Source: a bacterium (GTDB lineage Bacteria; Zixibacteria; MSB-5A5; GN15; FEB-12). From it: a stretch of 64,000 nucleotides of DNA. This document shows, one piece after another, positions 35,001 to 56,830 of the stretch (its first letter is position 1; every line of letters begins with the position of its first letter). Below the pieces are notes generated by a model. It saw nothing but the letters and a program-made list of their open reading frames with translations. It made no database searches and had not been told where the DNA came from. A program made the translations under genes and the position numbers. The stretch spans positions 3,281-67,280 of the forward strand of contig JBDRNJ010000057.1 in assembly GCA_043811375.1 (NCBI GenBank), in the 5' to 3' direction.

Positions 35001-35624
35001 TGGGTTGGCTTTTGCTGCATCCGAACCACTAATAATATTGAAATCCAGATTGAAGAGAGTGGAAAGCTCGCGCCGCCAGTTTCCAACTAAGCCGGCTGGT
35101 GGCACAATCAGTATCCGGCGTAAAAGGCGTCGAGTGAGCATCTCTCTGATGTACAAACCGGACATGATCGTCTTACCTGCGCCAGCGTCATCAGCAAGCA
35201 GAAAACGGAGGCGTGCCTGGTGCAACATGTGGTCATAGACGGCGATTCGCTGATGCGGCAAAGGATCTATATTTGCAATCTCAGTGGCAAAGGCAGGGTT
35301 GACCAAATGACCGAATGACAATCGTTCCCCCTCCACATACGCTTGAACCGCGTCAGGCTTCGCGGTAAAGTCTAGCCGGTCTTGAGCCTCTTGCGAATGG
35401 GGCTCTTCTATATACGGAGCTTCATCTTCTCCGCGTTCGTCGGCGAGCTTGAGTAGCTGACTCCAGGAAAGCTGCGAAGGGCGAGATTTGCCATTCTCCC
35501 ATCTATTGATCGTTGGGAAAGACACCCCAAGCTCTTCGGCCAGTGCCACCTGGGTGAAACCGAGCTTGGCCCGAATTTGCTTGACCTTGGTTGGATAATC
35601 ATCTCCTGGCAAAACTTCCGGCAT
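32055..35624 (-). CDS. XRE-HTH + SNF2 helicase + DUF3883 nuclease fusion
   Basis: N-terminal TQVALAEELGVSFPTINRWENG; LLADDAGAGKT, DEAH, TATPH, EGINLQ and QRMGRIHR; C-terminal GFDL...EVKG. Confidence 0.9.
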   Translation of the reverse strand: MPEVLPGDDYPTKVKQIRAKLGFTQVALAEELGVSFPTINRWENGKSRPSQLSWSQLLKLADERGEDEAPYIEEPHSQEAQDRLDFTAKPDAVQAYVEGERLSFGHLVNPAFATEIANIDPLPHQRIAVYDHMLHQARLRFLLADDAGAGKTIMSGLYIREMLTRRLLRRILIVPPAGLVGNWRRELSTLFNLDFNIISGSDAAKANPFMGNGSERLIVSVDTMTSNRVFARLQESNTQPYDLVVFDEAHKLSSSRGKDLRVTKTDRYRLAEAIAGVETADPDWRLHWHTHHLLLLTATPHMGKEYPYYALWRLLEPDILGTMDAFDRFPPDRRQIYFIRRTKEEMVHLDGKPLYPKRISDTLGFDLTQGEVSEQRLYDETTEYLRNVYNRAQMLNQSAAQLAMGVFQRRLASSTFALLCSFERRKEKLENIISDVQQGKFSFEELLKMQRALSDSDDIFESKTADDESTDQDREENEIAEDKLLRGVVAASLADLEAEREEVERLRDLAQQVYDAGQESKFDRLREVITDKKFREEKLIVFTEHRDTLQFLVRRLEGLGYTGQIAQIHGGMHYAEREEQVERFRSSLEEGGARFLVCTDAAGEGINLQFCWIMINYDVPWNPARLEQRMGRIHRYGQDHDPVIILNLVAPSTREGKVLKTLLDKLEKIRKELKSDKVFDSIGRVFSDISIKKYMERAMVGDADSIAEELEGRLTKEQVIALAFKEKQIYGDGGDVKKELPRLREDLGQETLYRLLPGYVRNFIQSAAPLVNMEVEGDLAKTFTLGPAQHGAVDPLMPALEAYSESQRDRLTVVRPKDRKSSIWMHPGEPMFEQFRTVVNAKLGSDASRGAVFVDPTTIKPYLFHLARLSVIRQADPDLAELSQLETIECRLVGVKQSEGSEITLCPVEHLMILKGGNGLPAEGQRLAATAEKFKEQAQAYLAERVGRSMAVEHRNKLLESLPEREAFMARGFDFQESELATTRAKMSQKARGGSRAAATELARIKDRQRELSSRRENAITVLRREPELIMHGDLEFIAHALVVPSSDPRDIEQSDTNTEKVAMQLAWAYAEASGATVVDVHTPDLALAGGLPAHPGFDLLLIPPAGDKIAVEVKGRLASGEIEMKANEWAKACNLKENYWLYVVYDCATSNPRLLRVQDPFDRLLAKNKGSMLIGAKQIVEASESEIS

Positions 35625-35685
35625 CCATATCTCCTAGGTTTATTTTTTCTTCTTATGACACATCGCGTGCTCATTTTGTTTTCAG

Positions 35686-35701
35686 TATATCATATGATAT
35701 A
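35686..35701. promoter_or_regulatory. candidate operator palindrome TATATCATATGATATA
   Basis: Perfect 16-bp inverted repeat about 60 bp upstream of the HTH-helicase start. Confidence 0.5.
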
Positions 35702-35812
35702 TTGGACGTAAAGCGCTTTTTTCGAGTTTCTGTCGTTTCCTGAGCTGAAATGCGAATGGATCACAAAGTGCGTCGTAAGGCATTGATATGTTATTACTTA
35801 ACGACATCCAGG

Positions 35813-35961
35813 TGGCCTGCCCCCCGAATATCGATCCAGTTTGAGAGGTAGTATGTTGGGCTGGATCGAGGAAGGAGGCGGTGACGGGTCGGAAGCGTTA
35901 CACCGTAGAATCTATTGTTTGGATGCTTCATGACGTCAGTGTAGCTTTGGCATGGCAGTAA
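35813..35961 (+). mobile_element. IS3-family left-end remnant (IRL + degenerate orfA)
   Basis: TGGCCTGCCCCCC end, AAGGAGG RBS, then MTGRKRYTVESIVWMLHDVSVALA resembling an IS3/IS407 OrfA N-terminus. Confidence 0.6.
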
Positions 35962-35982
35962 GGTTAACTGAAGTGGAGCGGG

Positions 35983-36750
35983 ATGTTACACTATCGAGAC
36001 AGTCATGTGAGAGATAAACTGGTCGAGAGGGGAAGCACCCTTTTCAAGGCACCTAAGCGACCCATACAGTTTACAAAGGTCGTTCCAGCCGATGAGCTTC
36101 TAAACGACTTAGTGAAGTTCCCTCATGCGTTCGTACTGGCCTGTATAATGGATCAGCAGGTCAAGGCGGAGAGGGCTTGGCTGGTTCCTTACAAGATCTC
36201 TTCACAACTTGGGGGCTTCACTTTGGACCTTCTGCGTCCACTTGATGAACCTGACATAAATAGGCTCATGCGAAAGCCGGAGATATTGCATCGGTTCGTT
36301 GACAGGATGAGTAGGTTCTTCTACTTAGCGATTCGCAGGATTGACTACCAATATGGAGGAGATGCTTCACAAGTCTGGAGCAGCAATCCGTCAAGCGCGG
36401 AAGTGGTCTATCGGTTCCTGCAATTTGATGGTGTAGGGCCGAAAATCGCTTGCATGGCAGCCAATATCCTCGCGCGAGAAATGAAAGTCCCTATGCACGA
36501 CTACTTCTCTATTGATATTTCAGCGGACATACACGTCCGAAGGGTGTTCTCACGACTTGGGCTGTGTCCTTCTGATTCGTCAGTAGAGCAGGTCATCTAT
36601 AAGGCTCGATCATTGTACCCTGAATTCCCGGGAATAATGGATCTGCCGAGTTGGGAGATCGGTCGGAATTGGTGCAAGTCCCGCCAGCCGCGTTGTGATG
36701 AATGTTATATGAGTGACATGTGCCCGACGGCAAACTCTGTACAGGCCTGA
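35983..36750 (+). CDS. HhH-GPD DNA glycosylase, endonuclease III-like, with 4Fe-4S cluster
   Basis: FDGVGPKIA HhH motif, DIHVRRV, C-X6-C-X2-C-X5-C. Confidence 0.88.
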   Translation: MLHYRDSHVRDKLVERGSTLFKAPKRPIQFTKVVPADELLNDLVKFPHAFVLACIMDQQVKAERAWLVPYKISSQLGGFTLDLLRPLDEPDINRLMRKPEILHRFVDRMSRFFYLAIRRIDYQYGGDASQVWSSNPSSAEVVYRFLQFDGVGPKIACMAANILAREMKVPMHDYFSIDISADIHVRRVFSRLGLCPSDSSVEQVIYKARSLYPEFPGIMDLPSWEIGRNWCKSRQPRCDECYMSDMCPTANSVQA

Positions 36751-37408
36751 GACGGTGTGCTGAGGTGGGAGTCTACTCATCTGGTCTGATGACCATAGAA
36801 CTGTGGGAACATCACCAATGTGAAACCATCAAACCTCTCAACGCCGAACACACGGACTTTCGCAGTCCGGTCTCGGTGGAACGACTAATCGTCCTCCCTT
36901 GGTTGCGTAATAACAAGTACTTCGGATTTACGGCGAACTCTTCTGCTGACGATTCGGACGATCCACTATTGATTCATCAGCACAGGCAGTTTGATATAAC
37001 CGGATTAATGGTGCACAAAACCGCCACCGCACCGCCAAGAACGTTATGCATTGTTGGCACTCCGCCCCGCGGTTTCCCTGGCTCGTTTCTCAGTGTCCCG
37101 ACAAATGCACCGGGAAAGATTCCAGTGGTGTTGGGGGATGTTATTGTGATATAGCACCTTACGCAACAAATCCGACTATTCGGTAGATTGCACTTTTAAT
37201 ACTTGCCAATGAGTATTCTGAGTACCATTATAGGTAAATGTTGGAGTTCTTGCATACTTCCGGCGGACTCGATTGCTGTCTTAGTCCGATCGGAAACGAG
37301 CGAGTATGCCTTGGAGAAACGCTCCCAACGTCTCTAGTGGCTGCTATGAGGAGTGGGGAGGCGTGCCCCAAGCTGCCGTGCAATGGAGCATTACAGGAGC
37401 CATAATGC

Positions 37409-39136
37409 ATGAAGCGTAGGAATTCGGATGGCGAGAAGCTGTGCACCAACCAGATCAAGGCGTTACAGGCAGTCGAATCCACTTATGGAAAATGGCTTAG
37501 CAGTCTCGGACGAACTTACCGGAATAAGCTTGAGACAGCCCTGGCTACGGCGCAGGAACGGATCATGGATCGGGTGTTTCGATCAACGACCCGACCGGGC
37601 GAGAGAATCGACTATGTTCACTTCTCTTATCGCTCGCTTGTTCTGGGTCATCGCTGGTACGATACCCATTATGCGGCCGCTCGGGATCCTGAGGAAGGCA
37701 GCCAAGTGAGTAAGGTCATCACAGTGTCGAACGGCGACAAAGTTGATAGAGCCTGTCTAAGTGAGTTCGCCCAAGAAGTGTACATGTATGAAGAGGCGTA
37801 CGAAATCCTGCCACCGATCGACTGTGAATTCTGTGCTGTCATGCTATGCACCGACACGCCATCGAAAGAAGAGTCCAGAGGGCTAATGAACGTGGGTGTA
37901 TATCCGCTCAGCCGCCTGGCCGTTGATTACGTAGTGAATCTCCTTATTAAATGCCAGCAGTGCCCATGGCGAATTCCAAGAGAGGCACTGATCGGCCACA
38001 CGAAGGAATTCATGCGGCTCGAAAGAAACCTAGTCTCAGACTGGGAGCGGATCAGAAAGAACACCAGGCGCAGAAGGATTCTGCCTTCAGCCGATCATGT
38101 CTTCGAGTTCATTTTGAAGTCGTCGATTATTACTTTGAATCTCCTCTCCGATCGATTGTTCGAAGAAACGGTGAAATACCGCGTGACCAAGGACCAACGG
38201 TCGTGGGAGCCGGGTATGCGAGTAAGTAAGCTGACCACACGGTCAGAGCTTCGCACTCTGCGGAAAAAAGCGCTCCAGGGGTTACCTCGCGGCGACCACC
38301 CGAGCTTGCGACGCTGCCTCTACTTCCTGCCCGTCAGACTAACCGCTGATCAGCGAGTTGTGGGACTTCTGGCCTTGGGCAGTGCCGATGCCCTTTCTTA
38401 CGAGATCGTTCCGTCTCTGGCCGTGGTGGAACGAGCGGCCTTTCTGATGTGTCGTGAATTCGAACTGACGTTGATCCAGAACCACCTCACAAGCGCCTTA
38501 GTGGAGTCGGAAGTCCAACGGTCCTTTGCCAAGCTCATGGCTCACGAACTATCCCATCCATTAATGCGCATCGACAATCTCGTTACGAGCGTTGGCGATG
38601 CCATTTCGACCGGACAAAGGACCCTGGAAGCCTTTACTCAAGGGATGTTTACTGAGTTGCTGGCCAAACCGGTCGACCTGCGGGCGGTCCTGCGCGATAT
38701 AGAACGGCGCCACCAACCGTTTACTGATGGTAAGGCGGCGATGTCGTTGGAGATCGACGTCTACCGGAAGACACTGGTCAGAGTCAACCGGCAAGTGCTG
38801 GAATACACGCTAGGAATTCTGGTGGGTAATGCTCTCGAGTACGGCTCGTCTCCTGCAAATCTCAGAGCGGAAGTTGATGAGGGACACAAGCAGGTCACCG
38901 TTTCGGTGAAAAACCCGGGTCCCCCTTTACCCAAACCAATCAGGAAAAGCCTTACTGTCAACGGCGCCTCGGGATCTGCGCGAGGCAGGCAACGGCGTGG
39001 GCAGGGTTTTGGCCGTGGACTGAAGTTGGTTACAGAGATATGTCGTCTGAACAGATGGGAACTGACCTATGAAGAAAGTGCCTTAAGCGAAATGGAAGTG
39101 TTGCACCGTTTCGATCTGGTGCTGCCAGGTGCATAG
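37409..39136 (+). CDS. soluble sensor histidine kinase
   Basis: H-box AHELSHPL, N-box VGNALEYG, VKNPGPP, G2 GFGRGL; GAF-like YFLPV..RVVGLLAL; no TM segment. Confidence 0.85.
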   Translation: MKRRNSDGEKLCTNQIKALQAVESTYGKWLSSLGRTYRNKLETALATAQERIMDRVFRSTTRPGERIDYVHFSYRSLVLGHRWYDTHYAAARDPEEGSQVSKVITVSNGDKVDRACLSEFAQEVYMYEEAYEILPPIDCEFCAVMLCTDTPSKEESRGLMNVGVYPLSRLAVDYVVNLLIKCQQCPWRIPREALIGHTKEFMRLERNLVSDWERIRKNTRRRRILPSADHVFEFILKSSIITLNLLSDRLFEETVKYRVTKDQRSWEPGMRVSKLTTRSELRTLRKKALQGLPRGDHPSLRRCLYFLPVRLTADQRVVGLLALGSADALSYEIVPSLAVVERAAFLMCREFELTLIQNHLTSALVESEVQRSFAKLMAHELSHPLMRIDNLVTSVGDAISTGQRTLEAFTQGMFTELLAKPVDLRAVLRDIERRHQPFTDGKAAMSLEIDVYRKTLVRVNRQVLEYTLGILVGNALEYGSSPANLRAEVDEGHKQVTVSVKNPGPPLPKPIRKSLTVNGASGSARGRQRRGQGFGRGLKLVTEICRLNRWELTYEESALSEMEVLHRFDLVLPGA

Positions 39137-39169
39137 AGCTGGGATTTTGTTGAGAAAGGGGCCATAGAA

Positions 39170-39580
39170 ATGACAAAGAACGATTCGCGGATGATAATCA
39201 TCGTGGTGGACGATACGGAGGCGTCATTCTCAAGAGTTAAGAAACTCCTTAAAGACTGCATCCCACATCTATATCTGAACCATATCAAATCTGCCCACGA
39301 GCTCGACGGACTACTTCGAACTTGCCAAAAACAAGGCGTAGTACCGCACGCATACATAGTTGACATAAGTTTGAGTGAGGACGCCGATGGTATCGACGTA
39401 ATAAGGAAGATCCGGGCGCAGTATCCCCAAAGCTTGATAGTTGCTAACACGAAGTTCGCCGAATACCGTGACGAAGCGATCAAGGCGGGGGCGGACAATT
39501 TTGTCGAGAAATTCACGCAAGACAACAGACTGGTGGAGATTCTAGTTGAAAACCTGTCAAGCGGTGAGGATTCAGTATGA
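39170..39580 (+). CDS. single-domain response regulator
   Basis: VVDD, IVDIS phospho-Asp, DG, T, GADNFVEK. Confidence 0.85.
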   Translation: MTKNDSRMIIIVVDDTEASFSRVKKLLKDCIPHLYLNHIKSAHELDGLLRTCQKQGVVPHAYIVDISLSEDADGIDVIRKIRAQYPQSLIVANTKFAEYRDEAIKAGADNFVEKFTQDNRLVEILVENLSSGEDSV

Positions 39581-39996
39581 ACGAAAAACAAGCAAGGGGT
39601 TCAGGGTACAACATCGCTGTTATGGTTGAGGATACCGATGCCTCATACGACCTGGTTCGGAGGTTGCTGAGCGAAGTCGCCCCCCCGGTGTACGTCAATC
39701 GGGCAAAGAATGTGGAGGCACTTGACTTACTCCTTGAGAAGCTGAAGTCGCACGGGACAACACCTTCTGTGTTTATCGTAGACGTGTCCATTAATGAAGA
39801 CACCGATGGCATCGTTCTGATTGATCGACTGCATACGAATTACCCGGAGGTGCCCATAATCGCCTATTCCAAGTTTCCGCAATACGAAAACGAGACGCTG
39901 GCGTCTGGTGCAGGATGGTTTGTGCATAAGTTCACAGAGAAAGCCCCAAGCAGGTTGGCAGAGATCGTCCAGAAGATTGTGCGGGAGGATAGTTGA
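39577..39996 (+). CDS. single-domain response regulator (paralog)
   Basis: MVED, IVDVS, DG, PIIAYS, GAGWFVHK; ATGA overlap. Confidence 0.85.
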   Translation: MNEKQARGSGYNIAVMVEDTDASYDLVRRLLSEVAPPVYVNRAKNVEALDLLLEKLKSHGTTPSVFIVDVSINEDTDGIVLIDRLHTNYPEVPIIAYSKFPQYENETLASGAGWFVHKFTEKAPSRLAEIVQKIVREDS

Positions 39997-41060
39997 GTAT
40001 GGAAGGCAGCACGCAAAACCCAAGGAAGAGTAAAAAGAGGGAGCGAATCATTGAGTACTTGTGGTTCAAAGCGACCAAGAAAAGGACTCTGCTTGTTTAT
40101 TGGCACCCGTCGCTGTGCTGGAGCCTTCTGCTGAACGCCCTAAAAATCCCAATCAGATGGTACCAGGAATACTATTATGCACCTTTCAATCTTACTGGGA
40201 CCTTTTACTTGCACACTGCTAGGAGAATCACCCAACTGATGTTCATAGTAATGTGCTACCTGACCTATCGGTATGGTTTGGGCGTTGGGTTTCTCTGGGT
40301 CGTCGGGCTGTTTTTTGTCCTTGTGCTAGTCGACTGTGTCGTGGCTCAGTGGACCGGGCTTCTGACGTTATCCTATGTGACCGATTCAACGCTGTTGGCG
40401 ATCATTGCGTCAAACTACAGGAATCTCAGGTCACTACGTAGCTTAAGGGATATAGTTGCTAACAACCTTCTTGGTGACCACCCCGCTATGAATACACCCG
40501 AGGGAATGGTGCAAGAAGATCAGGGTTTCAAGGAGGGTGTTGCCGAGATCTCTGAGGAGATTCTCATACGCCCGAATAAACAAAGAGTAGAAGTATTCAA
40601 GTTGGCCCTGCTTCCCCTGGGTCATGTGTTCAGTCTGCTGGTGTTCTGGGCGTTCATGGTGATTGCCATGCAAGCGGCGTGGGGCGGCTATGCCTTCAGG
40701 GGACTTCACCTGGCGAATGAGGATACCAGGTCGGTCAAGTCCTTTGGTCTCGATATGATCGACTGTGCCTACTTTTCTGCCGTCACGGTATCTACCATAG
40801 GCTACGGCCTGATCTTACCGGATGCTGCACCCGACGAGAAGGTGCGGACGGATTGTACACAGCGGATGCCCCAGACCACGTGGGTGCGATTCATAACTCT
40901 CGGCGTAATGTTGGTTGTGATTATTACGATTATTGGCACCTTCAACCTGACCTTTCAATCGGTGCAAGCGGTAACGCAGGCTCTCGGGGATTCAGATCGT
41001 GTCCAGCGAGTAGTGAGGCTCTATGCGATAGATGAAATCAAGTACCCGTTGGTGAGATAA
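39993..41060 (+). CDS. potassium-channel family (Ion_trans_2) membrane protein
   Basis: Pore helix and filter CAYFSAVTVSTIGYG between two TM helices; extra N-terminal TMs. Confidence 0.8.
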   Translation: MSMEGSTQNPRKSKKRERIIEYLWFKATKKRTLLVYWHPSLCWSLLLNALKIPIRWYQEYYYAPFNLTGTFYLHTARRITQLMFIVMCYLTYRYGLGVGFLWVVGLFFVLVLVDCVVAQWTGLLTLSYVTDSTLLAIIASNYRNLRSLRSLRDIVANNLLGDHPAMNTPEGMVQEDQGFKEGVAEISEEILIRPNKQRVEVFKLALLPLGHVFSLLVFWAFMVIAMQAAWGGYAFRGLHLANEDTRSVKSFGLDMIDCAYFSAVTVSTIGYGLILPDAAPDEKVRTDCTQRMPQTTWVRFITLGVMLVVIITIIGTFNLTFQSVQAVTQALGDSDRVQRVVRLYAIDEIKYPLVR

Positions 41061-41068
41061 CCAACATC

Positions 41069-42268
41069 ATGGAGGATTTGAAAATGTATTGTCGAATCAA
41101 AGCTATGTGGGTCCTCGTGGGGCTGGTGGCCGTTGTGGTCATGCTGGCCGGCTGCTCCAAGGAGGCCGGCAGGCAACAGGAGTATAAGATTGCAGCCATT
41201 CTCCCGATCAGCGGTCCTAACGCCGCACAGGGAATAGGAATGATGAACTCGTGCAAGGCAGCCATTGACGAGTTGAAGCGTACCGGCAAGCTAAAGGACA
41301 TACAGTTGAAACTGATGGAGCTTGACGACGAGTCTAAGCCGGAGGCAGCGGTGCGAGCCGCCGAACGTGCGGCTCAAGATCCGAAAGTTGTGGCCGTTAC
41401 TGCCCATTGGAACAGTGGCTGCGCTTTGGCGACCAATCCGGTGTTTCACAGCCATGGTCTGGCCAATCTGGTACCTGCCGCGATCAATTCGAAGATCACC
41501 CTTGAGCAGGAGGGTGATGAGATATTTCGCATCGATCCCCATGACCTGATCATCGTGGAGTACGCAGCCCGATTCGCCGTCACGAGAGAAGACTGGAAGC
41601 GGGTCTACGTCATCGATGACAACACTTTTTATGGCAAAGAGCTGGCGCGCAAGTTCCGCGGATTCTATGAACAGGATGGCCGAACTGTGATTGGCCAGGA
41701 CGCCGTCAACGTAGGGGAGCAGGACTTCACCGCACTGCTGACGCGGATCGACGGATCCTCGCCCGACGTAATCTTCTTCGGGGGCGTGGTGGCCGAGGCA
41801 GCCCTGATTCGTCGACAAATGAAGACAGTGGGTATGGAAGCTGATTTCATCAGCCTCACCGGGATATTCACGGAGTCGTTCATAAAGGCCGCCGGTCCCG
41901 CCGCGGAGGGTGCATTCTCGGTTACGGTGGTGCCACCGATCGATCTGCTCCCGGGATCGGATGAGTTTCTTGCCGCCTATGAGCGCGGCAAATACAGTCA
42001 TCCCCATGAGGCGTGGGGTGTCTATGCATACGCATCTATTCAAGTCTTGGCGGAGGCCATTAGTCGATCGCTGCCAAACCCGGACCGCCGTACCGTTATC
42101 GATCAGCTAAAGACAGGCGAGTTTGAGACTGTGCTGGGCGATATGCGCTTTGATAGCGACGGGCAAACGACTCTCGTCACTCTGTTCATATACGAAGTCA
42201 CAGATGGTCAATGGGTACCCAGATACTATGTTGCGGGATCTGGTGAGTTGGCTCCATTTGAGAGTTAG
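41069..42268 (+). CDS. livK: branched-chain amino acid-type ABC substrate-binding lipoprotein
   Basis: LAGC lipobox; PISGP, DDESKP, HWNSG, FRI and YGKELA motifs. Confidence 0.85.
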   Translation: MEDLKMYCRIKAMWVLVGLVAVVVMLAGCSKEAGRQQEYKIAAILPISGPNAAQGIGMMNSCKAAIDELKRTGKLKDIQLKLMELDDESKPEAAVRAAERAAQDPKVVAVTAHWNSGCALATNPVFHSHGLANLVPAAINSKITLEQEGDEIFRIDPHDLIIVEYAARFAVTREDWKRVYVIDDNTFYGKELARKFRGFYEQDGRTVIGQDAVNVGEQDFTALLTRIDGSSPDVIFFGGVVAEAALIRRQMKTVGMEADFISLTGIFTESFIKAAGPAAEGAFSVTVVPPIDLLPGSDEFLAAYERGKYSHPHEAWGVYAYASIQVLAEAISRSLPNPDRRTVIDQLKTGEFETVLGDMRFDSDGQTTLVTLFIYEVTDGQWVPRYYVAGSGELAPFES

Positions 42269-43180
42269 ATGGAACTTCAACAACTGTTAAACTTTCTCAC
42301 TCTGGGATGCGTCTATACCACCGTGGCCCTGGGTTTTACTCTGTACTTCGGAACCGTAAACCTGATAAACTTCGCTCACGGTGAGTTGTGTATGCTGGCC
42401 GCCTTCGGAGCCCTGATGGCCACTCGGCTTTTCGATCTGCATCTCGGCCAAATCGGCTGGGGCTGGATTCTGGTGACTACCGCCGCAGGTATGCTGTTGA
42501 CCATTGGTGTCGGCTGGCTGTCGTATTGGTCCATCTTCCGGAGAATCAGGGGGCGTCCGCTGATCGAAGGGCTCCTTGTATCCATCGCGCTTTCAATGCT
42601 GCTCCGTGAACTGATACTGCACCTGTATCCGAACGGGGGAAATCCGCAGCCGTTTCCGGACCCCTTTCACCTGGAGTATCTACAGATCGGTGATATTACG
42701 ATCTCCTACATGCGGTTGACCGCGCTTCTCATTTGTGGTGGTTTGACGGTGCTATTCTACTTCTTGGTCCTGCGAACGGATGTGGGCCGCGTCATGAGGG
42801 CCATTTCCCAGGACCCCGAAGCGGCCGTGATGATGGGTCTACCCGTCGAACGAATCATCGGCTGGTCATTCGTGATTGGGTCCGCTCTAGCCGGCATTGC
42901 CGGCATCATGACAGGAGCTCTTTACGGCAGCGTGAAATTCGATATGGGAATAATGCTGGGCGTAAAAGGTTTTGTGGCCGCCGTCGTCGGAGGGCTCGAC
43001 AACCCTAGGGGGGCGCTTATGGGGGGACTGATGGTTGCCGGCCTTGAGGTCTTTGTGGTGGGATCGTTTGCCGGTGGTTCGGCATATCGTGATATAGTGG
43101 TCTTCGCCGTCTTGATCGGATTGATCCTGATTCGCCCCCAGGGGCTTCTGGGAAGGAAAGTGGCCCTTGGCAGCAGCTAG
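42269..43180 (+). CDS. livH: branched-chain amino acid ABC permease
   Basis: INFAHGE, GRVMRAISQDPEAA, GFVAAVVGG and RPQGLLG motifs. Confidence 0.9.
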   Translation: MELQQLLNFLTLGCVYTTVALGFTLYFGTVNLINFAHGELCMLAAFGALMATRLFDLHLGQIGWGWILVTTAAGMLLTIGVGWLSYWSIFRRIRGRPLIEGLLVSIALSMLLRELILHLYPNGGNPQPFPDPFHLEYLQIGDITISYMRLTALLICGGLTVLFYFLVLRTDVGRVMRAISQDPEAAVMMGLPVERIIGWSFVIGSALAGIAGIMTGALYGSVKFDMGIMLGVKGFVAAVVGGLDNPRGALMGGLMVAGLEVFVVGSFAGGSAYRDIVVFAVLIGLILIRPQGLLGRKVALGSS

Positions 43181-44315
43181 GACTATTGCGGTCAACGTGA
43201 TCGGCGCGGCCGTCCTGGTGGGTGCGCTGGCCGTTATAATGGCCACCAAGGATACGTACGTTGGGTACGGCCTGATTGCCGTCGCTGTATTCCTGCTGGC
43301 TTCTTACCGACTTCGCCTCAAGACCGCAAGTGGTCAGAAGTCGATCTTACGGGTTAATCCCCGTTCTTCGGGGTTCGTCATTGCATTGGTGGCATCGCTG
43401 GCATTACTGCCGTTGCTGCAGGTTGATCAAACCTATTCCCTCTACATTGAAACCAGGATGTTGGTCTTGGCGGTCAGCCTGCTCGCCTTTTCGGCCACCC
43501 TCGGCATGACGGGAATGGTGGATATCGGAATCGGTGCCTACTTGGGTACCGGGGCATACATATCTGCCCGCTTGAGCATGAGCCTTGGCCTGCCCGTACC
43601 GGTTGCGGTCACCGTCGCCATACTAGCTTCTCTTCTGCTTGGTCTTCTACTGGGGCTGATAGTGGTGCGATCCCGCGGACACTATTTCGCCCTGGTCACT
43701 CTTGGGCTGGGACTAGTCTTCTATCATGTATTCGTTCAGGCTGAGGCGGTTACCCTGGGCGTGGATGGAATAGCGAATGTCCCCCGCTTCTCATCATCAA
43801 TCTTCCAAGCGATCGACGCTGCGGACTCAACCCAGCTGATCCGGCGCGATTACGCCCTCGACTTCTACACTGCCCTGGTCATCTTTGCATTGGTTCTCGT
43901 GTTTATCCTTCGGCTTGATGCCAGTCAGTTGGGACGAGATTTGAGAGCGACCAAAGATGATGAAACAGCAGCCACGAGCGTTGGATTGGATGTTTTGCGC
44001 CTTCGCGTTTTGGCCTACGCCGTCAGTGCGGGGATTGCCGGCCTAGCTGGGGCTATGCATGCCCATACCGTGGGTTACATTGCACCCGGCGATTTTGGCT
44101 TCAAACAGTCGGTCTTTCTGATCGCGATTGCAGTCCTCGGTGGTTCGGGCAGTCCGATGGCATCGGTTGGTGCCGCCTTTGGAATACTGATACTCGAGGA
44201 GAAGCTGAGGGGATTCGGCGATTTGCGTATTATTCTGATCGCCTGTTCCATCCTGGCTATCATTCTATACCGAGCGAGGATTCGCTCCGCAGGTCGATAT
44301 GAAACCCAAAGCTGA
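43167..44315 (+). CDS. livM: branched-chain amino acid ABC permease
   Basis: RGHYFALVTLG, GRDLRATKDDETAA and VLGGSG motifs. Confidence 0.88.
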   Translation: MAAARTIAVNVIGAAVLVGALAVIMATKDTYVGYGLIAVAVFLLASYRLRLKTASGQKSILRVNPRSSGFVIALVASLALLPLLQVDQTYSLYIETRMLVLAVSLLAFSATLGMTGMVDIGIGAYLGTGAYISARLSMSLGLPVPVAVTVAILASLLLGLLLGLIVVRSRGHYFALVTLGLGLVFYHVFVQAEAVTLGVDGIANVPRFSSSIFQAIDAADSTQLIRRDYALDFYTALVIFALVLVFILRLDASQLGRDLRATKDDETAATSVGLDVLRLRVLAYAVSAGIAGLAGAMHAHTVGYIAPGDFGFKQSVFLIAIAVLGGSGSPMASVGAAFGILILEEKLRGFGDLRIILIACSILAIILYRARIRSAGRYETQS

Positions 44316-45105
44316 CCAGCCTATGTTGTTGCGGGTATCGGGACTGGGAAAGTCCTTTGGCGGACTGATGGCTCTGAGGGACTTTCATCTGTCTGTTCCC
44401 CAGGGTGAGATCTGCGGTATCATGGGTCCCAACGGTTCGGGGAAAACGGTTTTTTTCGATCTTGTTTCCGGATTCATCACCCCCGATACGGGACGGATTT
44501 TCTTCGGCGAGGCGAACCGGGACATCACGAGATTGCCGTCCCACGCCCGAACCACCCAGGGGATCGCCAGGACCTTTCAACACCAACGGTTGTTCAGCAG
44601 TCTGACTACCGAAGAGAACGTAATAGCCGGTCTCGGATCTCGATCGGCCTGGGAAAACCTGAAGGAGATACTGCTGCCTCCAAACGCCAGGGCGTTGAGA
44701 GCAGTTCGAAGATCGAAGGCGGAAAGGATCATGCGCCGTTTTCCGGACCGCCTGATGCCACGTCGTCACGAGTCCTGCCTTGCCCTGTCATATGCCAATC
44801 GCCGGCGCTTGGAGATTGCGCGAGCCTTAGTCGGGCATCCGAGGCTGGTGCTTCTGGACGAGCCTACGGCGGGGATGAACCCTCGAGATACTTACGAACT
44901 GCAAACCCTGATTCACCACATGAAATCCGAAGGTGTTACCTTTGTGATTATCGAACACAAGCTGTTCTTCTTTGAGGACCTCGCCGATCGCATAGTCGTG
45001 CTGGATCAGGGCACCAAGATCGCTGAGGGACGAATACAGGACATCCGTCGTAACGCTGACGTTAGCGCAGCCTACCTGGGAGTGACCAATGCTTCTGACA
45101 GTTGA
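44299..45105 (+). CDS. livG: branched-chain amino acid ABC ATPase
   Basis: GPNGSGKT, GIARTFQ, LSYANRRRLEIARAL and DEPTAG motifs. Confidence 0.9.
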   Translation: MKPKADQPMLLRVSGLGKSFGGLMALRDFHLSVPQGEICGIMGPNGSGKTVFFDLVSGFITPDTGRIFFGEANRDITRLPSHARTTQGIARTFQHQRLFSSLTTEENVIAGLGSRSAWENLKEILLPPNARALRAVRRSKAERIMRRFPDRLMPRRHESCLALSYANRRRLEIARALVGHPRLVLLDEPTAGMNPRDTYELQTLIHHMKSEGVTFVIIEHKLFFFEDLADRIVVLDQGTKIAEGRIQDIRRNADVSAAYLGVTNASDS

Positions 45106-45808
45106 GGGACTATCGGTCAGTGTTGGTGGCTTTCCGGTCCTCAAGGAGGTCGACCTGGAAGTGGCCCAGGGCGAAATAGTAGCCCTGTTGGGGGCCAACG
45201 CATCAGGTAAGACCACGACCTTGAAGTCAATCTTGGGGATGTACAATCCGACGGCGGGGCGCATCCTATTCAACGGTGCCGTCATCACGCACCTTAGTAC
45301 GAAGGAACGAGTTGGATTGGGAATAGCCATCGTGCCTGAAAACAGGCGTCTGTTTCCGGCATTGACCGTACAGGAGAACCTCAGCCTGACTCGCCGGTAC
45401 CTGCCGGACTCCCGGCGTGACGAGGTTGAGTCGTTCTGCCGCGATCGGTTTCCGTTATTTCAGACCGAACGGAGAATGAGTCAATTGGCCGGAACGCTCA
45501 GCGGTGGCGAACAGCAACAGGTAGCCATGGCCCGAGCGCTCATGCTCAATCCGCGCCTGTTGCTGTTGGATGAACCGTCGATGGGGATGTCCGTGAAATT
45601 GGTGCATGAAAACTTCGCGATTCTTCAAGATGTGGCCGCCATGGGGATCGGCGTGCTGTTGGTCGAACAGAATGTGAGCATGTCTTTGAACATTTCAACG
45701 CGGGCTTACGTTCTCAGAGATGGTGCCGTGATACTTAGAGGCGCCTCTGGTAATCTGTTGAGTGATAGAATGATACAACGGTCATTCATGGGTGATTTCG
45801 TTTCGTGA
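45089..45808 (+). CDS. livF: branched-chain amino acid ABC ATPase
   Basis: GANASGKTT, LSGGEQQ, DEPSMG and LLVEQN motifs. Confidence 0.9.
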   Translation: MLLTVEGLSVSVGGFPVLKEVDLEVAQGEIVALLGANASGKTTTLKSILGMYNPTAGRILFNGAVITHLSTKERVGLGIAIVPENRRLFPALTVQENLSLTRRYLPDSRRDEVESFCRDRFPLFQTERRMSQLAGTLSGGEQQQVAMARALMLNPRLLLLDEPSMGMSVKLVHENFAILQDVAAMGIGVLLVEQNVSMSLNISTRAYVLRDGAVILRGASGNLLSDRMIQRSFMGDFVS

Positions 45809-45835
45809 AGTGGTATATTCAAGTTTTCCCCGGCC

Positions 45836-46684
45836 TTGACCGAAACAACATACAGAGGTGTATCAGTTATGAGAGTTGATGCGAGTAGACAGTATGACCA
45901 GGAGACAGCCGTGATGAAACCCATTCGCAGGGAAGAGCATCGACTACCATTGTTCTCGTGCCGAGGCTTGGCCACATACCGGGTTCATGATTTGGACATA
46001 CGTCTTCAAATGACTCCTGATAATGTGTTCCCACCGAGTGAGACGAGCCTTGTTCTTGCAGAGATCGTGGCACAAACGCCGGTCGAATCGGCGTTGGACA
46101 TCGGTACCGGATGCGGCGTCCTGGCGATTTCTCTGGCGTTGACAGGATGCCGCCAAGTGACGGCGATTGACTGCAACAGTACGGCCATAGCGTGCGCCAG
46201 AGAAAACGCCCGTTTAAACGGCTTGGAGAACCGGATTGAGTTCCTTGCCGAGGACGCTTATGCCTATCAGCCCGAATCTAGGTTTGATCTGGTTGTCACA
46301 AACCCTCCGTTTTTGCCGATTATTCCGGGTCGTCGGTTTAGGTCAGACAAGATCATGCAGGCCATAGATGGAGGGGCTGTGGGTGCCGACCATATCGTCG
46401 GATTTGCCCGGCGTGCAAAAGATCTTCTCGCACCCACCGGCAAATTCGTTGTAGCCGTTCCTCACTTCGTGTCGTTGGACCTGGTCTTAAGCAAATTGAA
46501 GGAACTGTACAGCCTTCGACTCCTAAGGCAGGAGCCGATCCGATTCTGGCTGGCCGAGTATGACCCTGACTATCGAAATCACATAATCGCTTTGGTAGCC
46601 AAGGGAGTGTCCGAAGCCTCGGAGTCACGTGAAGGTCTTGTGATGAGTAAGCTCTCCGTATTCGAGTGTTCACCTTATTCGTAG
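45836..46684 (+). CDS. class I SAM methyltransferase, HemK/PrmC-like (NPPF)
   Basis: VFPP.ET, LDIGTGCG, VTNPPF and DGG motifs; start uncertain. Confidence 0.85.
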   Translation: MTETTYRGVSVMRVDASRQYDQETAVMKPIRREEHRLPLFSCRGLATYRVHDLDIRLQMTPDNVFPPSETSLVLAEIVAQTPVESALDIGTGCGVLAISLALTGCRQVTAIDCNSTAIACARENARLNGLENRIEFLAEDAYAYQPESRFDLVVTNPPFLPIIPGRRFRSDKIMQAIDGGAVGADHIVGFARRAKDLLAPTGKFVVAVPHFVSLDLVLSKLKELYSLRLLRQEPIRFWLAEYDPDYRNHIIALVAKGVSEASESREGLVMSKLSVFECSPYS

Positions 46685-47064
46685 ACAGTCATGACACTAG
46701 GGACGAACATACCGTGTAACGGTGTGCGTCACAGAATCGTCACAGGTTTCTTTGAGACCCTTTCAACCCCTTGACGGAGTGAATATTGTCGGATGCATGC
46801 TTGTGCCGTGAATTCGAGTCACGTTTTTCATCGACTGCGGTACACTTCGTCAAGAGATTGACGGTAGGTTCGTACGTTGGGAAACCCCGCTCAGGACTGG
46901 CGATTTCGGGTCCGATCGATTAATGCGAACAAGAGGTGATGCGTATTTTGATCGACTTCGAGACTCGTGGTGGGAGTTCGCGTCCGCTGTCATAGATCGC
47001 TGTGACAGATTTGTGACACTCCGGGGTTGATAAGACTCGAACCCCCGCGAACCACAGACTTCAC

Positions 47065-48651
47065 TCAATTGGGCATACTAGCGTCTTTTACGCGAAAGGT
47101 CAGTACCACCTCCCTGCGCTCAGGATCATAGGAAATCGATTCGAGCAACTCACGTATCATTTTGGTCTTCTCGCGCTCTACCAGCACTTCCCACAACGAT
47201 CCAAACCGCGCCAGGGCATCGATCAAGTGATCCTTGTCGACAGTCTCTGATGCAACTTGATCACGTTCCATGTCGATTTCGTTGATCCTGTGATCCAAAC
47301 GGCCCAGGAGTTTTTCTGACTCTTTCAACCGTTCCCCAACCGTTGTAAGGGGCGTGTCGGAAGAGGCAATGGCCGCGACCAGACGTTCAATCTTCTCCTC
47401 GAGTCGGCACTTCTGCTCGGAGAGCCGCTCGCGATCCTGCTTCAGCTTTGTGGCATGGCGTTCTCTTCGCTTCACAGCTTCGGCAAACGCTTGCTCCCTT
47501 AGACCCGGATCTTCTCCGATACGTCCGATCATTGCCACCACATGGTTCTCGATCTCCTGTGCAGGCAGTGGCCGGGTATCACAGACTTCCCGACCTCGCT
47601 TCTGCTTTGTTGTGCAGAGGTAATAACGATAGAGCCTGTTCTGCTTCTTGGCATACGTGTGGGCCATAGCAGCACCGCAGTTTCCGCACTTCATTAGCCC
47701 CTTCAACAGTCCCATATGCGGGTAACGGGTGGCTTTCTTACCGGCATGCGTGTTCTTCCGGATCAGTGCTTGGACTTGATCGAAAACGGACATGTCAATG
47801 ATAGCCGAGTGTTCGCCCGGCAATATCTGACTCTTGTGGTTTACCTGACCGTTATAGGTCACATTAGTCAGGATTCGTTGGAGTCGGGCCTTGTCGAAAG
47901 GCACCCCCTTGCGCAGGGTACCTTTCTTGGTGAGATGAGATTTTGTCTTCCAGCCTCGACGATTAGCCTCTTGGGCCACTTTCAGCATCGATTTCTTCTC
48001 TAAGTACAGGTCAAACAGACCCCGCACTATCTTGACCTCCTCCGGGTTGAGCACCAGTCGCTTGCGGTCACGGTCGATGTCATATCCGAGCACCGGCGGC
48101 CCCCCCAGCCACTTCCCCTTGCGCCGCGCGGCACACATTTTGTCCGACGTCCTCTCCGATATTATTTCCCGCTCAAATTGAGCAAAGGACAGAAGGACGT
48201 TAAGAACCAGTCTCCCCATCGACGTTGCGGTATTGAACTGTTGTGTGATCGAGACAAACGAAACCTGGTTGACCTCGAAGACTTCCATCAATCGGGCGAA
48301 GTCCAGAAGCGACCGGGAAAGGCGGTCTACCTTGTAGACTAGAACGCAGTCGATCCGGCCGCTCTGAATATCAGCAAGCAATCTCAGGAGAGCCGGCCGG
48401 TCAGTATTACCACCCGTGAAGCCGCCATCATCGTACTGGTCCGACAATGGCAGCCATCCCTGTGACCGCTGGCTCTTGATGAACGCCTCACAGGCTTCTC
48501 GTTGGGCATCAAGCGTGGAGAAGTCGGAGTCCAACCCTTCGGTGGTCGACTTGCGAGTGTAGATGGCACAGCGAATTGTCTTCGCCGAAGTGAAGAGCCT
48601 CTCGATTTGCCCTCTGCCGTTATCGTGGCGTTGACTGGCAAGTGGGGTCAA
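47065..48651 (-). CDS. large serine recombinase (resolvase + recombinase + zinc ribbon)
   Basis: AIYTRKS catalytic Ser, DRLSRS, FAQFERE, CGNCG...YYLC. Confidence 0.93.
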   Translation of the reverse strand: MTPLASQRHDNGRGQIERLFTSAKTIRCAIYTRKSTTEGLDSDFSTLDAQREACEAFIKSQRSQGWLPLSDQYDDGGFTGGNTDRPALLRLLADIQSGRIDCVLVYKVDRLSRSLLDFARLMEVFEVNQVSFVSITQQFNTATSMGRLVLNVLLSFAQFEREIISERTSDKMCAARRKGKWLGGPPVLGYDIDRDRKRLVLNPEEVKIVRGLFDLYLEKKSMLKVAQEANRRGWKTKSHLTKKGTLRKGVPFDKARLQRILTNVTYNGQVNHKSQILPGEHSAIIDMSVFDQVQALIRKNTHAGKKATRYPHMGLLKGLMKCGNCGAAMAHTYAKKQNRLYRYYLCTTKQKRGREVCDTRPLPAQEIENHVVAMIGRIGEDPGLREQAFAEAVKRRERHATKLKQDRERLSEQKCRLEEKIERLVAAIASSDTPLTTVGERLKESEKLLGRLDHRINEIDMERDQVASETVDKDHLIDALARFGSLWEVLVEREKTKMIRELLESISYDPERREVVLTFRVKDASMPN

Positions 48652-48653
48652 CG

Positions 48654-49166
48654 CTACTTACTCCCTCTCTTTGTCAGTCCAAAGAACAGAAACCCATTCC
48701 AGATTGAGCCGGTGATATGTCTGGCCAGAGCCGACAGCGACCGGAACTGTTGACCGGCGTATTCAAATCCGTTCTCAAGGACCCGCACGTTGATTTTCTT
48801 GCCCTTATAAGTCTTGGTAATGGTGGTCCCGACCTTGGGCAGTCGGGGATCGGTGGCACCCAAAGGGCGAGATTGTCGCTTCCTGGGCTGCTTCGCACTG
48901 CCTTTGGCCTTCGTGGAATTACGCACCAGCCGCTTGCGCTTCGGATTGAACTTAGATGTCAGCGCCGAGTCGGATGACCCTTTTGACTCCGCCTGCCCGC
49001 TGGCCGCCTGTAGTTTTTTGGCTATGGCAGCGTAGAGATATTTACGGCTGCGAGATTTTGACTCCTTTCCGAAGATTTTGGCGTATTCTTCCCTCAATTC
49101 TTTCAGCCCCATCTTTTGCAGAGCAGAGATGCGCTGCCAATTCTGGTTCGTCTGGTCGTCCTTCAT
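48654..49166 (-). CDS. DUF2924 domain protein
   Basis: LPKVGTTITKTYKG..V.VLENGFEY.GQQFRSLSALARHITGSIWNGFLFFGL; typical partner upstream of a serine recombinase. Confidence 0.88.
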   Translation of the reverse strand: MKDDQTNQNWQRISALQKMGLKELREEYAKIFGKESKSRSRKYLYAAIAKKLQAASGQAESKGSSDSALTSKFNPKRKRLVRNSTKAKGSAKQPRKRQSRPLGATDPRLPKVGTTITKTYKGKKINVRVLENGFEYAGQQFRSLSALARHITGSIWNGFLFFGLTKRGSK

Positions 49167-49461
49167 GCGATAACTCCTTGTTATAAAGTCAGTTAAGTGT
49201 TGCTTGGACACCGTACTGAATCGCTGAGAATGAGGAGAAGTCAAGCGGAAAGATGGCCGATCGAGTACTTTCTGGACGCCAGAAACGGCACGTAATCCGT
49301 TGTTTATCAGGAACATGGGGCAGTCCTTGAGTGCTCGCATGTCACTAAACCAGACGGCGCCTGACCATCAGGCGGCAGGCGAACTTATACTATGTGGCAG
49401 GGAGGACTGCCGCCCGCAGGAGGTAGCAGGGACCGATCTCTATCCCGTCAAAAAAAAGCGC

Positions 49462-49490
49462 TTGACAAACGTTTTTACATTTTGTATTGT
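49462..49490 (+). promoter_or_regulatory. sigma70-like promoter
   Basis: TTGACA-17bp-TATTGT with an upstream A-tract. Confidence 0.55.
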
Positions 49491-49526
49491 ATCCAACAGA
49501 CAATTTACAAACGGAGCCCATGTATT

Positions 49527-50018
49527 ATGGATAACCTGAACAAGATTCGCGAACTCATCGATCAGATCGATGATGCCAAGCTGGTCGATCTCATCTCTTC
49601 CCAGCGGAAACGACTTCAGCTGGCCAGGCAGGAGGTGAAGGAGGCCAAGGCGGAACTGGACTTTCTGGAGCAAGTGTTCCAGTTCAGACATGCCCGCCGG
49701 GCCGGAGACCCCATCGTGAGAATCACTGATCCCAAGGATCCTTTGCAGAAGATCGAGGCTACCGAGTTCAAGCGTGACAACATGGTCACGGCCGTCGAGA
49801 GAATCCTGACTAAGGGAAACCGCACTCTAACTGTGGACGAGATCGTGCACTGCCTGAGATTGGGCGGTTTCCCCTTCCGGGTCAAGGATCCCGCCACTTC
49901 TGTGGAAGTCGTCCTCAATCGCAATAAGGACAAATTCTTCCGAGAAGAGCCACATGTTTTCAGGCTCAGGGATGATGGTAAGAGGGGCGAATCCACACCG
50001 GCGTCCCCTGATGAGTAG
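49527..50018 (+). CDS. coiled-coil + winged-helix hypothetical protein
   Basis: N-terminal coiled coil; AVERIL..GNRTLTVDEIV..L...SVEVVLNR wHTH-like C-terminus. Confidence 0.6.
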   Translation: MDNLNKIRELIDQIDDAKLVDLISSQRKRLQLARQEVKEAKAELDFLEQVFQFRHARRAGDPIVRITDPKDPLQKIEATEFKRDNMVTAVERILTKGNRTLTVDEIVHCLRLGGFPFRVKDPATSVEVVLNRNKDKFFREEPHVFRLRDDGKRGESTPASPDE

Positions 50019-50071
50019 GGGAGCAGGCATGTGGCAGACAGTGACATTGAAAACCAAGGAAGGATTTAACA

Positions 50072-51406
50072 ATGAAAAACAGTGCAAATGACGGCGCGGC
50101 ATCAGGGCGGGGCCGAAACCGCCCCAAGAAAGGTGGCCAGGAACCCGACCGAGCCCAGAACCCTGGTCTTTTCAAGGTCGAGCTGATACCGATCCAGCAA
50201 CTCCGCCCTAATCCAACTAATCCGCGGCACAATGATCACGCCGTAGATGCCGTGGCCAGATCCATTCAGGCGTTCGGGTGGAACTGTCCCATCATTACGG
50301 ATGCCGATTTGAATATCGCGGCTGGCCACACCCGGCTCAAGGCGGCCAAAAAACTCGGTTTCACAAAAGTCCCCGTGATTCGGGTGCCGGGGCTGGTCGG
50401 AGCGAAGCTGATCGGCTATGGCATCGCCGAAAACAAGGTCGCGGAAATAGCAGACTGGGACGAGGAGTCTCTCCAGCAGCTAATTGCTGAACTCAATGAG
50501 GACGTAGATTTTGACCTGAACGCCCTTGGTTATGATGATAACGAACTGACTAGGCTGCTGGACCAGGGATTCCCGGGCAGTTTAGAGAAGGAGGATGAAG
50601 CACCTCCTTTACCGGAGCAACCCATCACCAAAACCGGTGACCTCTGGCTGCTGGGACAACATCGATTGCTCTGCCGCGATGCTACGAAGATTGAGGATGT
50701 CCGGCAGTTAACAGATGGACAGCGCGTTGACTGCCTTCTGACCGATCCGCCATATGGTGTCAATTACAGCAGCCGAGGCCGAAAGAAACAAGCCTGGGGC
50801 GGAATCCAAAACGATAACTTGGATCCGGACCATCTGGAGAAATTCCTGGTGACAGCCTTCAAAAACGCGGCTGCAGTAAGCCGGCCGGGTGCGACTGGTT
50901 ATGTTTTTCACGGAATAAGTAAGGCCGGCATTCGGATAGCCTTCGAGCGGGCCTTCCTCGGTGCCGGGTTTCAACTGGGATCGACGATCATCTGGGTGAA
51001 GCCGTCAGCGTCCATGGGCTGGGGAGACTACCGTGAGCAGCACGAACCGATTCTATATGGCTGGCTGGGCAAAGATCATCGGAGGATCAAGGACCGTACC
51101 CAGACCACCGTTTGGCAAATCGGTCGGGATGGAGATTACCGTCATCCAACTCAGAAACCGGTGGCGCTAATATCTCGAGCTTTGAGAAACTCCACCATCC
51201 GTGGAGAAGTAGTACTTGACCCTTTTGTAGGCTCGGGCACCACCATCATAGCCTGCGAGCAGCTAGGCCGCCGCTGTTTTGCCATGGAGGTTGACCCTCG
51301 GTATTGCGATGTCGCGGTTCAACGGTGGGAATGTTGTATGGGGAGGAAGGCTAACATGATTAGCCCCAGCACAAAATCAGACACGGAGAACGGTAATCAT
51401 GAATAA
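50072..51406 (+). CDS. ParB-N domain + N6/N4 DNA methyltransferase (phage-type)
   Basis: NPR.N, SIQAFGW, AGHTRL; TDPPYG, HPTQKPV and VLDPFVGSGTT motifs. Confidence 0.92.
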   Translation: MKNSANDGAASGRGRNRPKKGGQEPDRAQNPGLFKVELIPIQQLRPNPTNPRHNDHAVDAVARSIQAFGWNCPIITDADLNIAAGHTRLKAAKKLGFTKVPVIRVPGLVGAKLIGYGIAENKVAEIADWDEESLQQLIAELNEDVDFDLNALGYDDNELTRLLDQGFPGSLEKEDEAPPLPEQPITKTGDLWLLGQHRLLCRDATKIEDVRQLTDGQRVDCLLTDPPYGVNYSSRGRKKQAWGGIQNDNLDPDHLEKFLVTAFKNAAAVSRPGATGYVFHGISKAGIRIAFERAFLGAGFQLGSTIIWVKPSASMGWGDYREQHEPILYGWLGKDHRRIKDRTQTTVWQIGRDGDYRHPTQKPVALISRALRNSTIRGEVVLDPFVGSGTTIIACEQLGRRCFAMEVDPRYCDVAVQRWECCMGRKANMISPSTKSDTENGNHE

Positions 51407-51824: not shown

Positions 51825-51917
51825 GCGAGTCATCCAATTATATTGCGCCGCTGGCCACTGGATCATCGTTGCGCGGCGCACGGCATGTGAACAACAGCGT
51901 AGCTGGCGGGAAAACCA

Positions 51918-56631: not shown

Positions 56632-56683
56632 CTCTTCCTCCTCCAATTTGAGAGTACAATCTCTTAGGCTGAAATGACCTCAT

Positions 56684-56830
56684 TGTACGTCTTCAAACAA
56701 TCCGGACAATTGTAGCTAGAATCTAAGACACAGTTTGTCTGATGGCAAGGGCCTTTTTGTAGTCTCGTTTCCTCATTTTCATAGTTCATACTTTGATTCG
56801 ATTTCTTTCTTGAAGTATCCGCGCAGCAGT
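56684..56830 (-). mobile_element. IS3-family right-end remnant (OrfB C-terminus + IRR)
   Basis: Minus-strand ARILQERNRIKV*TMKMRKRDY, then IR TGTACGTCTTCAAACAATCCGGACA (56684-56708). Confidence 0.75.

Follow-up and report, generated by a model that had tools for sequence, protein, structure and literature searches.

A mobile ABC importer operon of a Zixibacteria bacterium that may carry its own soluble two-component sensor

What can a two-component system act upon when it is encoded without any DNA-binding regulator, in one run of genes with an importer, an ion channel and a methyltransferase? This question is raised by an operon of ten genes in a stretch of 64,000 nucleotides from a bacterium of the Zixibacteria (GTDB lineage MSB-5A5; GN15; FEB-12; GenBank assembly GCA_043811375.1, contig JBDRNJ010000057.1, positions 3,281 to 67,280 of the forward strand), the whole of which is called the window here. 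The operon encodes a histidine kinase, two stand-alone receivers (RR1 and RR2), a potassium channel, the five proteins of an ATP-binding cassette (ABC) importer and a methyltransferase. Our tentative answer, to which we assign a probability of about 0.4, is that we are dealing with a mobile importer module, one that carries a soluble two-component sensor and whose output is non-transcriptional. The operon would be accessory DNA that spreads horizontally, with a LivK/HAAT-type ABC importer at its centre; the binding protein of this importer comes from a small clade with a remodelled pocket, and the importer would have gained a two-component sensor of its own, made of a rare soluble kinase and two paralogous single-domain receivers.

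The ten open reading frames (ORFs) occupy about 9.3 kb (37409-46684), all on the + strand, and they abut or overlap according to the ORF listing, as a preliminary description of this DNA had stated. Gaps of 33 bp separate the kinase gene from that of RR1, 8 bp the channel from the binding protein, 0 bp the binding protein from the LivH-type permease and 27 bp the LivF-type ATPase from the methyltransferase; the five overlaps measure 4, 4, 14, 17 and 17 bp, and include ATGA at 39577 and TTGA at 39993. Three of the starts, those of the channel, the methyltransferase and the binding protein, are uncertain. Domains were assigned to the ten proteins with Pfam and NCBIfam, and neither collection places a DNA-binding domain in any of them; Rfam gave no match at E <= 1 across 35500-47200. 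The preliminary description had also proposed that no DNA-binding regulator is present, that the kinase lacks a transmembrane segment and that both receivers are intact without an output domain, and our analyses, detailed below, agree with it on all of these points.

The importer set is complete, with a binding protein, two BPD_transp_2 permeases and two ATPases. From its domains we assign it to the LivKHMGF/HAAT family; it is predicted not to be an orthologue of the E. coli Liv system, because all its scores fall under the NCBIfam equivalog cutoffs. The start of the binding protein is estimated to lie a few codons past 41069, at about 41084, since the public gene call has 394 residues and the ORF 399. 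Its best solved relative is 3ip5 (E 8.1e-40), and 1usg is matched at E 2.6e-31. Among 5.8 billion proteins the closest relatives are seven at 61-66% identity; next come 27 further listed proteins at 44-50%, and identity then drops to 29%, which sets off a discrete clade. The best match within the phylum is 30-34% identical, and in 40 related genomes identity is 23-28%.

The pocket was compared by means of alignments to 1usg and 3ip5 and of a 26-sequence alignment that holds 22 clade members and four outgroup proteins. The operon shares its fold family and five-gene layout with LivJ/LivK and Atu2422 and their LivHMGF partners (1usg, 1z15, 3ip5), and Ser79, the Arg, the Asp and Tyr150-Gly are kept. 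Unlike in LivJ/LivK, the motif positions Thr102, Gln124 and Glu226, which we take to have roles in ligand recognition, are Ile, Ile and Thr here (residue numbers are our own count along the 1usg chain). Set against the eight-residue alpha-amino-acid recognition motif of Acher and Bertrand, in the form quoted in PMC12965686, the binding protein agrees at five of eight positions (S, R, D, Y and G kept; T/S replaced by Ile, Q by Ile and E/D by Thr), and the same five-of-eight pattern is found in 8/8 of the closest clade members. The Thr/Ser position is Ile or Val in 22/22 clade members and Thr in 4/4 outgroup proteins, the Glu/Asp position is Thr or Ser in 22/22 and Asp in 4/4, and the Gln position is Ile in the eight closest members, so that two to three of the eight residues are missing from the clade. 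Because these contacts have been lost, the imported substrate is probably not a standard alpha-amino acid, and the 'amino-acid-like signal' of the preliminary description needs to be revised. Several members of the clade (P0010-P0043) are labelled 'branched-chain amino acid transport system substrate-binding protein' in their sources. The 'branched-chain amino acid' or 'Liv' naming is probably wrong for this clade, since all 22 aligned members lack both the motif Thr/Ser and the motif Glu/Asp.

The kinase has a single Pfam family, HATPase_c, at residues 464-558 (31.8 bits vs a cutoff of 26.4), and a Kyte-Doolittle scan reveals no hydrophobic segment in it. H379 of its AHELSHP H-box aligns to the HEL motif of a solved kinase; its G1 box has Asn in place of Asp, and the solved kinase ThkA also has Asn at the aligned position. 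The modelled catalytic and ATP-binding (CA) domain superimposes on that of VanS with Z 18.6 and a root mean square deviation of 1.8 over 129 aligned residues. Judged from these residues and from the model, the kinase core looks genuine. The sensor region that precedes it matches no Pfam family and gives no Pfam GAF match. When modelled alone, it reached a mean predicted local distance difference test score (pLDDT) of 57.3 and was confident for residues ~112-292 only, and Foldseek found no match to this model at E <= 0.001. The best VIA-align matches are GAF domains at Z 5.3 and 5.1, below the level that would mean more than a common arrangement, and the GAF leads in the Atlas scored 0.84-0.87, under the bar of 0.9.

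A full HMMER search of 1.84 billion representatives with the first 370 residues of the kinase gave four full-length relatives (P0003-P0006; E 2.4e-51 to 2.4e-26), each of them a singleton cluster. Two further proteins, P0007 (7950 residues) and P0008 (381 residues, seven stretches), matched query residues 142-212 only and were put aside as short repeated-motif matches. H71, C139, C142, C348, H379, N474 and N502-x-G504 are common to 5/5 family members, and on this alignment the sensor region is predicted to form a new family of sensor domains, in which three cysteines are invariant. Counting the query, the family has five known members, so that the kinase comes close to being an orphan. Its sensor-region profile was found in 0/284 other genomes of the phylum; neither the kinase nor alignment A1 retrieved a relative from the genome contig collection, neither A1 nor P0003 retrieved one from the viral contig collection, and tblastn gave no match for the kinase among plasmids. 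A word-based search returned the query itself only, among 7999 scored candidates, and this same method missed the relatives found by full HMMER. Kinase matches in 10/40 related genomes covered the C-terminal core only (query residue 306 onward, 21-30% identity) and were rejected as generic kinases. In the metagenome contig collection one locus, L011, has a kinase relative.

RR1 and RR2 consist of a receiver domain only, without output or effector domain. They are tandem paralogues with 40% identity (E 2e-33), and the phosphorylation residues are intact in both: D14-D15, D65, T94 and K114 in RR1, and E18-D19, D69, S98 and K118 in RR2.

The preliminary description had named co-occurrence elsewhere as the test of its proposal. 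Co-occurrence was found directly for kinase and receiver, in L011, and by deduction for kinase and binding protein, on two contigs. In L011 the end of a MutS2-like gene is followed by the kinase and then by a same-strand receiver, cut by the contig end, which carries the VVDLxL...GIDLI pattern of RR1 and RR2. The guanine plus cytosine (GC) fraction falls from 0.68-0.71 across MutS2 to about 0.50-0.54 across kinase and receiver, with a sharp border at 1000-1200; because of this fall at the MutS2/kinase border, the pair is on acquired DNA, at an insertion border in an unrelated high-GC host. Furthermore, binding protein P0010 (66% identity) and kinase P0005 both come from Logan and both from a contig of 22683 nt, binding protein P0013 (62%) and kinase P0003 both come from JGI and both from a contig of 13484 nt, and the kinase, channel and binding protein of the window are all listed with a contig of 76451 nt. 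There is thus strong indirect evidence that kinase and importer share one contig in three cases, two of them deduced from matching source and size. P0011, which is 88.8% identical to P0010, comes from a 665,527-nt JGI contig, and the 50% clustering of the library would conceal any kinase there. Across the three linked contigs, pairwise identity is 31-39% for the kinases vs 61-64% for the binding proteins. Because the kinase family is narrower than the Liv-type clade, the sequences suggest a core formed by the transporter, to which the two-component system was added. The module also looks foreign to its hosts, because its sensor occurs in 0/284 genomes, its binding protein has relatives of 30-34% identity in the phylum and GC falls at its border in L011; that the operon is island-borne, as had been proposed, is borne out by its position on acquired DNA.

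Output-less receivers allow another reading, in which RR1 and RR2 are phosphorelay intermediates or sinks, the output is an unlinked protein (a histidine phosphotransfer (Hpt) protein or a DNA-binding regulator), and any regulation of the channel, importer and methyltransferase is transcriptional. Two-component signalling has well-established examples of single-domain receivers that act as shuttles or sinks (Spo0F, CheY-type sinks), and the operon has no output domain and tandem paralogous receivers, as if one buffered the other. The best Foldseek matches of the whole kinase model include GAF-containing phytochrome kinases, and some phytochrome kinases pair with output-less receivers, as in Cph1-Rcp1, a GAF-histidine kinase with a single-domain receiver. 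The operon resembles these phytochrome-type systems in its soluble kinase, in a GAF-like module before the dimerization and histidine phosphotransfer (DHp) helix and in the output-less receiver, and differs from them in the weakness of the GAF resemblance reported above. Against a phosphorelay, no Hpt protein or regulator was found in or beside the operon, and a module moving between 0.69-GC and 0.54-GC hosts would lose an unlinked partner. We regard this reading as unlikely, if far from negligible.

The channel gene overlaps the stop codon of RR2. Its product has at least three hydrophobic segments, two of which (206-224 and 301-319) flank the selectivity filter, with an insertion of ~17 residues past the filter, and the bacterial chains 3tcu/3ouf ('potassium channel protein') align to it over the pore helix and filter. 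Candidate starts are TTG 39993 and ATG 39999, both after GGGAGG, and 40239, used in the public gene call (273 residues). A word-based search found the channel itself only, which says little, because the same method missed true kinase relatives found by full HMMER. A complex prediction for RR1 and RR2 with the channel gave no answer either way (score 0.00, with an uncertain partner fold and no controls).

The order of kinase, receivers and channel recalls the Detocs defense system. As described in its report (bioRxiv 10.1101/2023.01.24.525353), Detocs pairs a soluble kinase with two receiver proteins, one a buffer made of the receiver alone and the other equipped with an effector, some effectors being transmembrane; the V. 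alginolyticus system is drawn with tetratricopeptide repeats (TPR), and their placing in DtcA is our reading of the figure legend. In a Detocs-like defense, the kinase would sense phage, one receiver would buffer phosphate and the other would open the K+ channel, which would lead to depolarization and abortive infection, with the importer and the methyltransferase as passengers. The operon likewise has a soluble kinase, a receiver-only protein, a second receiver protein, a defense-island setting and a candidate membrane effector, and here the soluble kinase and two receivers directly precede a channel whose start overlaps the RR2 stop. The operon also stands beside Hma and other conflict genes, and its kinase has about twice the rate of divergence of the binding protein. 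In Detocs, second receiver and effector form one protein (DtcC), whereas here both receivers stand without an effector domain and the channel is a separate gene; also unlike Detocs, the kinase has no TPR family (Pfam, E <= 0.01). PADLOC gave no match for kinase, receivers or channel at E <= 0.001, in a release that may hold no Detocs models. The L011 pair adjoins MutS2 rather than defense genes, and what seems to be conserved with the kinase is an importer of five genes, a component for which no described defense system has a need. Altogether, we find a Detocs-like role very unlikely. The preliminary description had proposed a role in defense or cell-cell signalling, and action of the receivers on the channel, transporter or methyltransferase; none of these gained support from the analyses, which speak neither for nor against defense. 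The same slight chance is given to a bolder variant that keeps the importer, in which a fast-diversifying soluble kinase would detect phage infection or an imported foreign signal and the receivers, one of them a phosphate buffer, would gate the K+ channel post-translationally: Detocs-like logic with a split ion-channel effector and an importer for a non-amino-acid ligand. We found no description in the literature of a kinase, single-domain receivers and a K+ channel in combination, the defense-related papers being judged by title and abstract.

The last gene of the operon encodes a methyltransferase with candidate starts at TTG 45836, ATG 45869 and ATG 45914, and with a 55-residue N-terminal extension of uncertain reality. 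It shares the Rossmann methyltransferase fold, and an NPPF at the NPPY/F position, with HemK/PrmC, HemK2/N6AMT1 and RsmC-like MTS proteins; unlike these, it has the uncertain extension and scores below every equivalog cutoff (PRK14968.1-3, 99.2 bits vs 162; hemK_fam, 70.6 vs 115.5), including that of PrmC (TIGR03534, 83.9 bits with a cutoff of 199.1), so that it does not qualify as PrmC/HemK. N6AMT1/HemK chains are matched at E ~6e-09. In PADLOC it matches mad2 (E 2.9e-26, 90.3 bits) in the methyltransferase domain only (positions 271-449 of 492); no mad model was the best match of any of the 16 other proteins scanned with PADLOC, and mad2 was a weak secondary match of HmaB. Because mad2 scores about like the HemK-type models (99.2 and 83.9 bits), this protein could be an orphan DNA methylase.

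Such a methylase would fit a chance mosaic, in which unrelated cargo (a two-component pair, a channel, an importer and an orphan methylase) was packed into an integration hotspot without a common function, at least as regards the channel and the methyltransferase. The region after the tRNA-Asn gene does hold several unrelated mobile and defense blocks. Nevertheless, the kinase and the binding protein are both very rare, yet coincide on three contigs, and genes juxtaposed at random would hardly show gaps of 0-33 bp with five overlaps across 9.3 kb. We therefore consider a mosaic quite unlikely.

Several observations weigh against the importer module with its own sensor. Promoter-like sites number 8 vs 9.4 expected from shuffles, and terminator-like sites 6 vs 9.6 expected. 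Since neither class is enriched, we infer co-transcription of the ten genes from their spacing alone. A channel start at 40239 would leave a gap of 243 bp after RR2. The co-location on the two further contigs comes from size and source matches, and gene order, strand and distance are unseen there. That the kinase has diverged further than the binding protein is a trait of conflict genes and seldom of a dedicated regulator, and the neighbours of the operon (Hma, integrase, ParB-methylase, an RHS toxin with Imm44) are defense or conflict genes. There are far more binding proteins listed at 44-50% identity (27) than kinase relatives (four), so that the importer clade exists mostly without this kinase. 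Finally, the tetranucleotide signature of the operon is ordinary for the genome, at the 68th to 81st percentile.

If the importer module with its own sensor is nevertheless the correct reading, it could work as follows. The importer would take up its solute, and the soluble kinase would sense either this solute or some cytoplasmic consequence of it. The kinase would autophosphorylate on H379 and hand the phosphate on to RR1 (at D65) and RR2 (at D69), and the receivers would act by protein contact, unless one of them served as a phosphate sink. The candidate targets closest at hand would be the ABC ATPases and the K+ channel, given the overlap of its start with the stop codon of RR2; the module may or may not include the channel and the methyltransferase. 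Transporter-linked two-component systems are known in PstSCAB-PhoU-PhoR and BceAB-BceRS, which have a DNA-binding regulator as output and membrane-anchored kinases. The operon resembles them in that an ABC transporter is encoded with a kinase without periplasmic sensor, the transport state or the solute being the presumed signal. It differs from them in its soluble kinase, in a pair of receivers without output domains and in a transporter that belongs to the LivK/HAAT importers.

The features of the operon and of its surroundings are collected in the table below.

Table. Features in and around the operon, in window coordinates (E, expect value; SAM, S-adenosylmethionine)
Feature	Position	Strand	Basis or remark
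tRNA-Asn	24937-25010		Precedes the Hma block
Complete Hma system, HmaC/HmaB/HmaA	25492-35624	-	E 1.9e-72, 6.8e-115, 3.2e-152; directly after tRNA-Asn
Promoter-like site TTGCCA-17-CATTAT	37203..37231	+	Consensus match only; in the 254-bp gap 5' of the kinase gene
Soluble histidine kinase, 575 aa	37409..39136	+	HATPase_c; H-box AHELSHP; ~357-aa novel N-terminal sensor region
Stand-alone receiver RR1, 136 aa	39170..39580	+	Response_reg E 3.3e-13, 50.2 bits vs 30.2 cutoff
Stand-alone receiver RR2, 139 aa	39577..39996	+	Response_reg E 1.8e-07, 31.7 bits vs 30.2 cutoff; start overlaps RR1 stop
K+ channel	39993..41060	+	Ion_trans_2 26.5 bits vs 22.5 cutoff; filter TVSTIGYG
LivK-family substrate-binding lipoprotein	41069..42268	+	Peripla_BP_6 E 3.1e-54; LAGC lipobox
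LivH/UrtB-type permease	42269..43180	+	BPD_transp_2 E 2.6e-42; NCBIfam scores below equivalog cutoffs
LivM/UrtC-type permease	43167..44315	+	BPD_transp_2 E 3.9e-38
LivG-type ATPase	44299..45105	+	ABC_tran E 1.3e-27; LivG model 196.6 bits vs 362 cutoff
LivF/UrtE-type ATPase	45089..45808	+	ABC_tran E 1.1e-33
SAM-dependent methyltransferase, MTS/HemK-like	45836..46684	+	MTS E 4.1e-19; NPPF motif
Terminator-like hairpin + T run	46807..46823	+	Consensus match only; 123 bp past the last stop codon
Phage-type large serine integrase	47065-48651		phrog_95, E 6e-127

The operon had been described as lying between a restriction-like system and a serine recombinase, and these correspond to the Hma system and to the phage-type serine integrase. 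HmaA has an N-terminal HTH_3 domain and a C-terminal NOV_C domain, and the composition of the Hma block is atypical for the genome, at about the 96th percentile. Between Hma and the operon (35983-37154, + strand), an HhH-GPD glycosylase-like ORF of 255 residues overlaps a family-less ORF of 144 residues, 254 bp 5' of the kinase; neither of them occurs upstream of the kinase in L011. On its other side the operon is abutted by a block (47065-52550) with the serine integrase, DUF2924, a 208-residue ORF, a ParB-N6/N4 methylase and a small-terminase-like protein, which looks like a prophage or satellite remnant. Further on, a protein of 1082 residues (53398-56646, - strand) matches only the type I phosphodiesterase/alkaline-phosphatase fold, at E 4.7e-16, and has no PADLOC or PHROG match. 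From 57494 on, and beyond the window in L018 (775-16155), there is an ORF of 2310 residues without Pfam, PADLOC or PHROG family and then one of 238 residues, followed further along L018 by an RHS-repeat/DUF6443 protein of 2479 residues and an Imm44 immunity-like gene. By its gene content, the stretch from the 2310-residue ORF to Imm44 is a predicted polymorphic-toxin locus adjoining the island. The ends of the island are undefined, because no repeat of the tRNA-Asn 3' end (14-20 nt) was found in the contig. An intergenic inverted repeat of 25 nt (25329-25353 / 56684-56708), 88% complementary with a perfect core of 17 nt, brackets 31 kb with Hma, the operon and the integrase block; similarity stops at ~25 nt, and the repeat could be a chance match or an element end.

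With five kinases known, the ecological weight of the system is low until more loci are seen. The clade adds a distinct LivK-like lineage without the alpha-amino-acid contacts, which may point to the import of an unknown class of ligand, and the operon adds a candidate for receivers whose target is a channel or transporter. If kinase, receivers and importer do form one unit, it would be a transporter-coupled two-component system with an output other than transcription, moving as a block between distant hosts.

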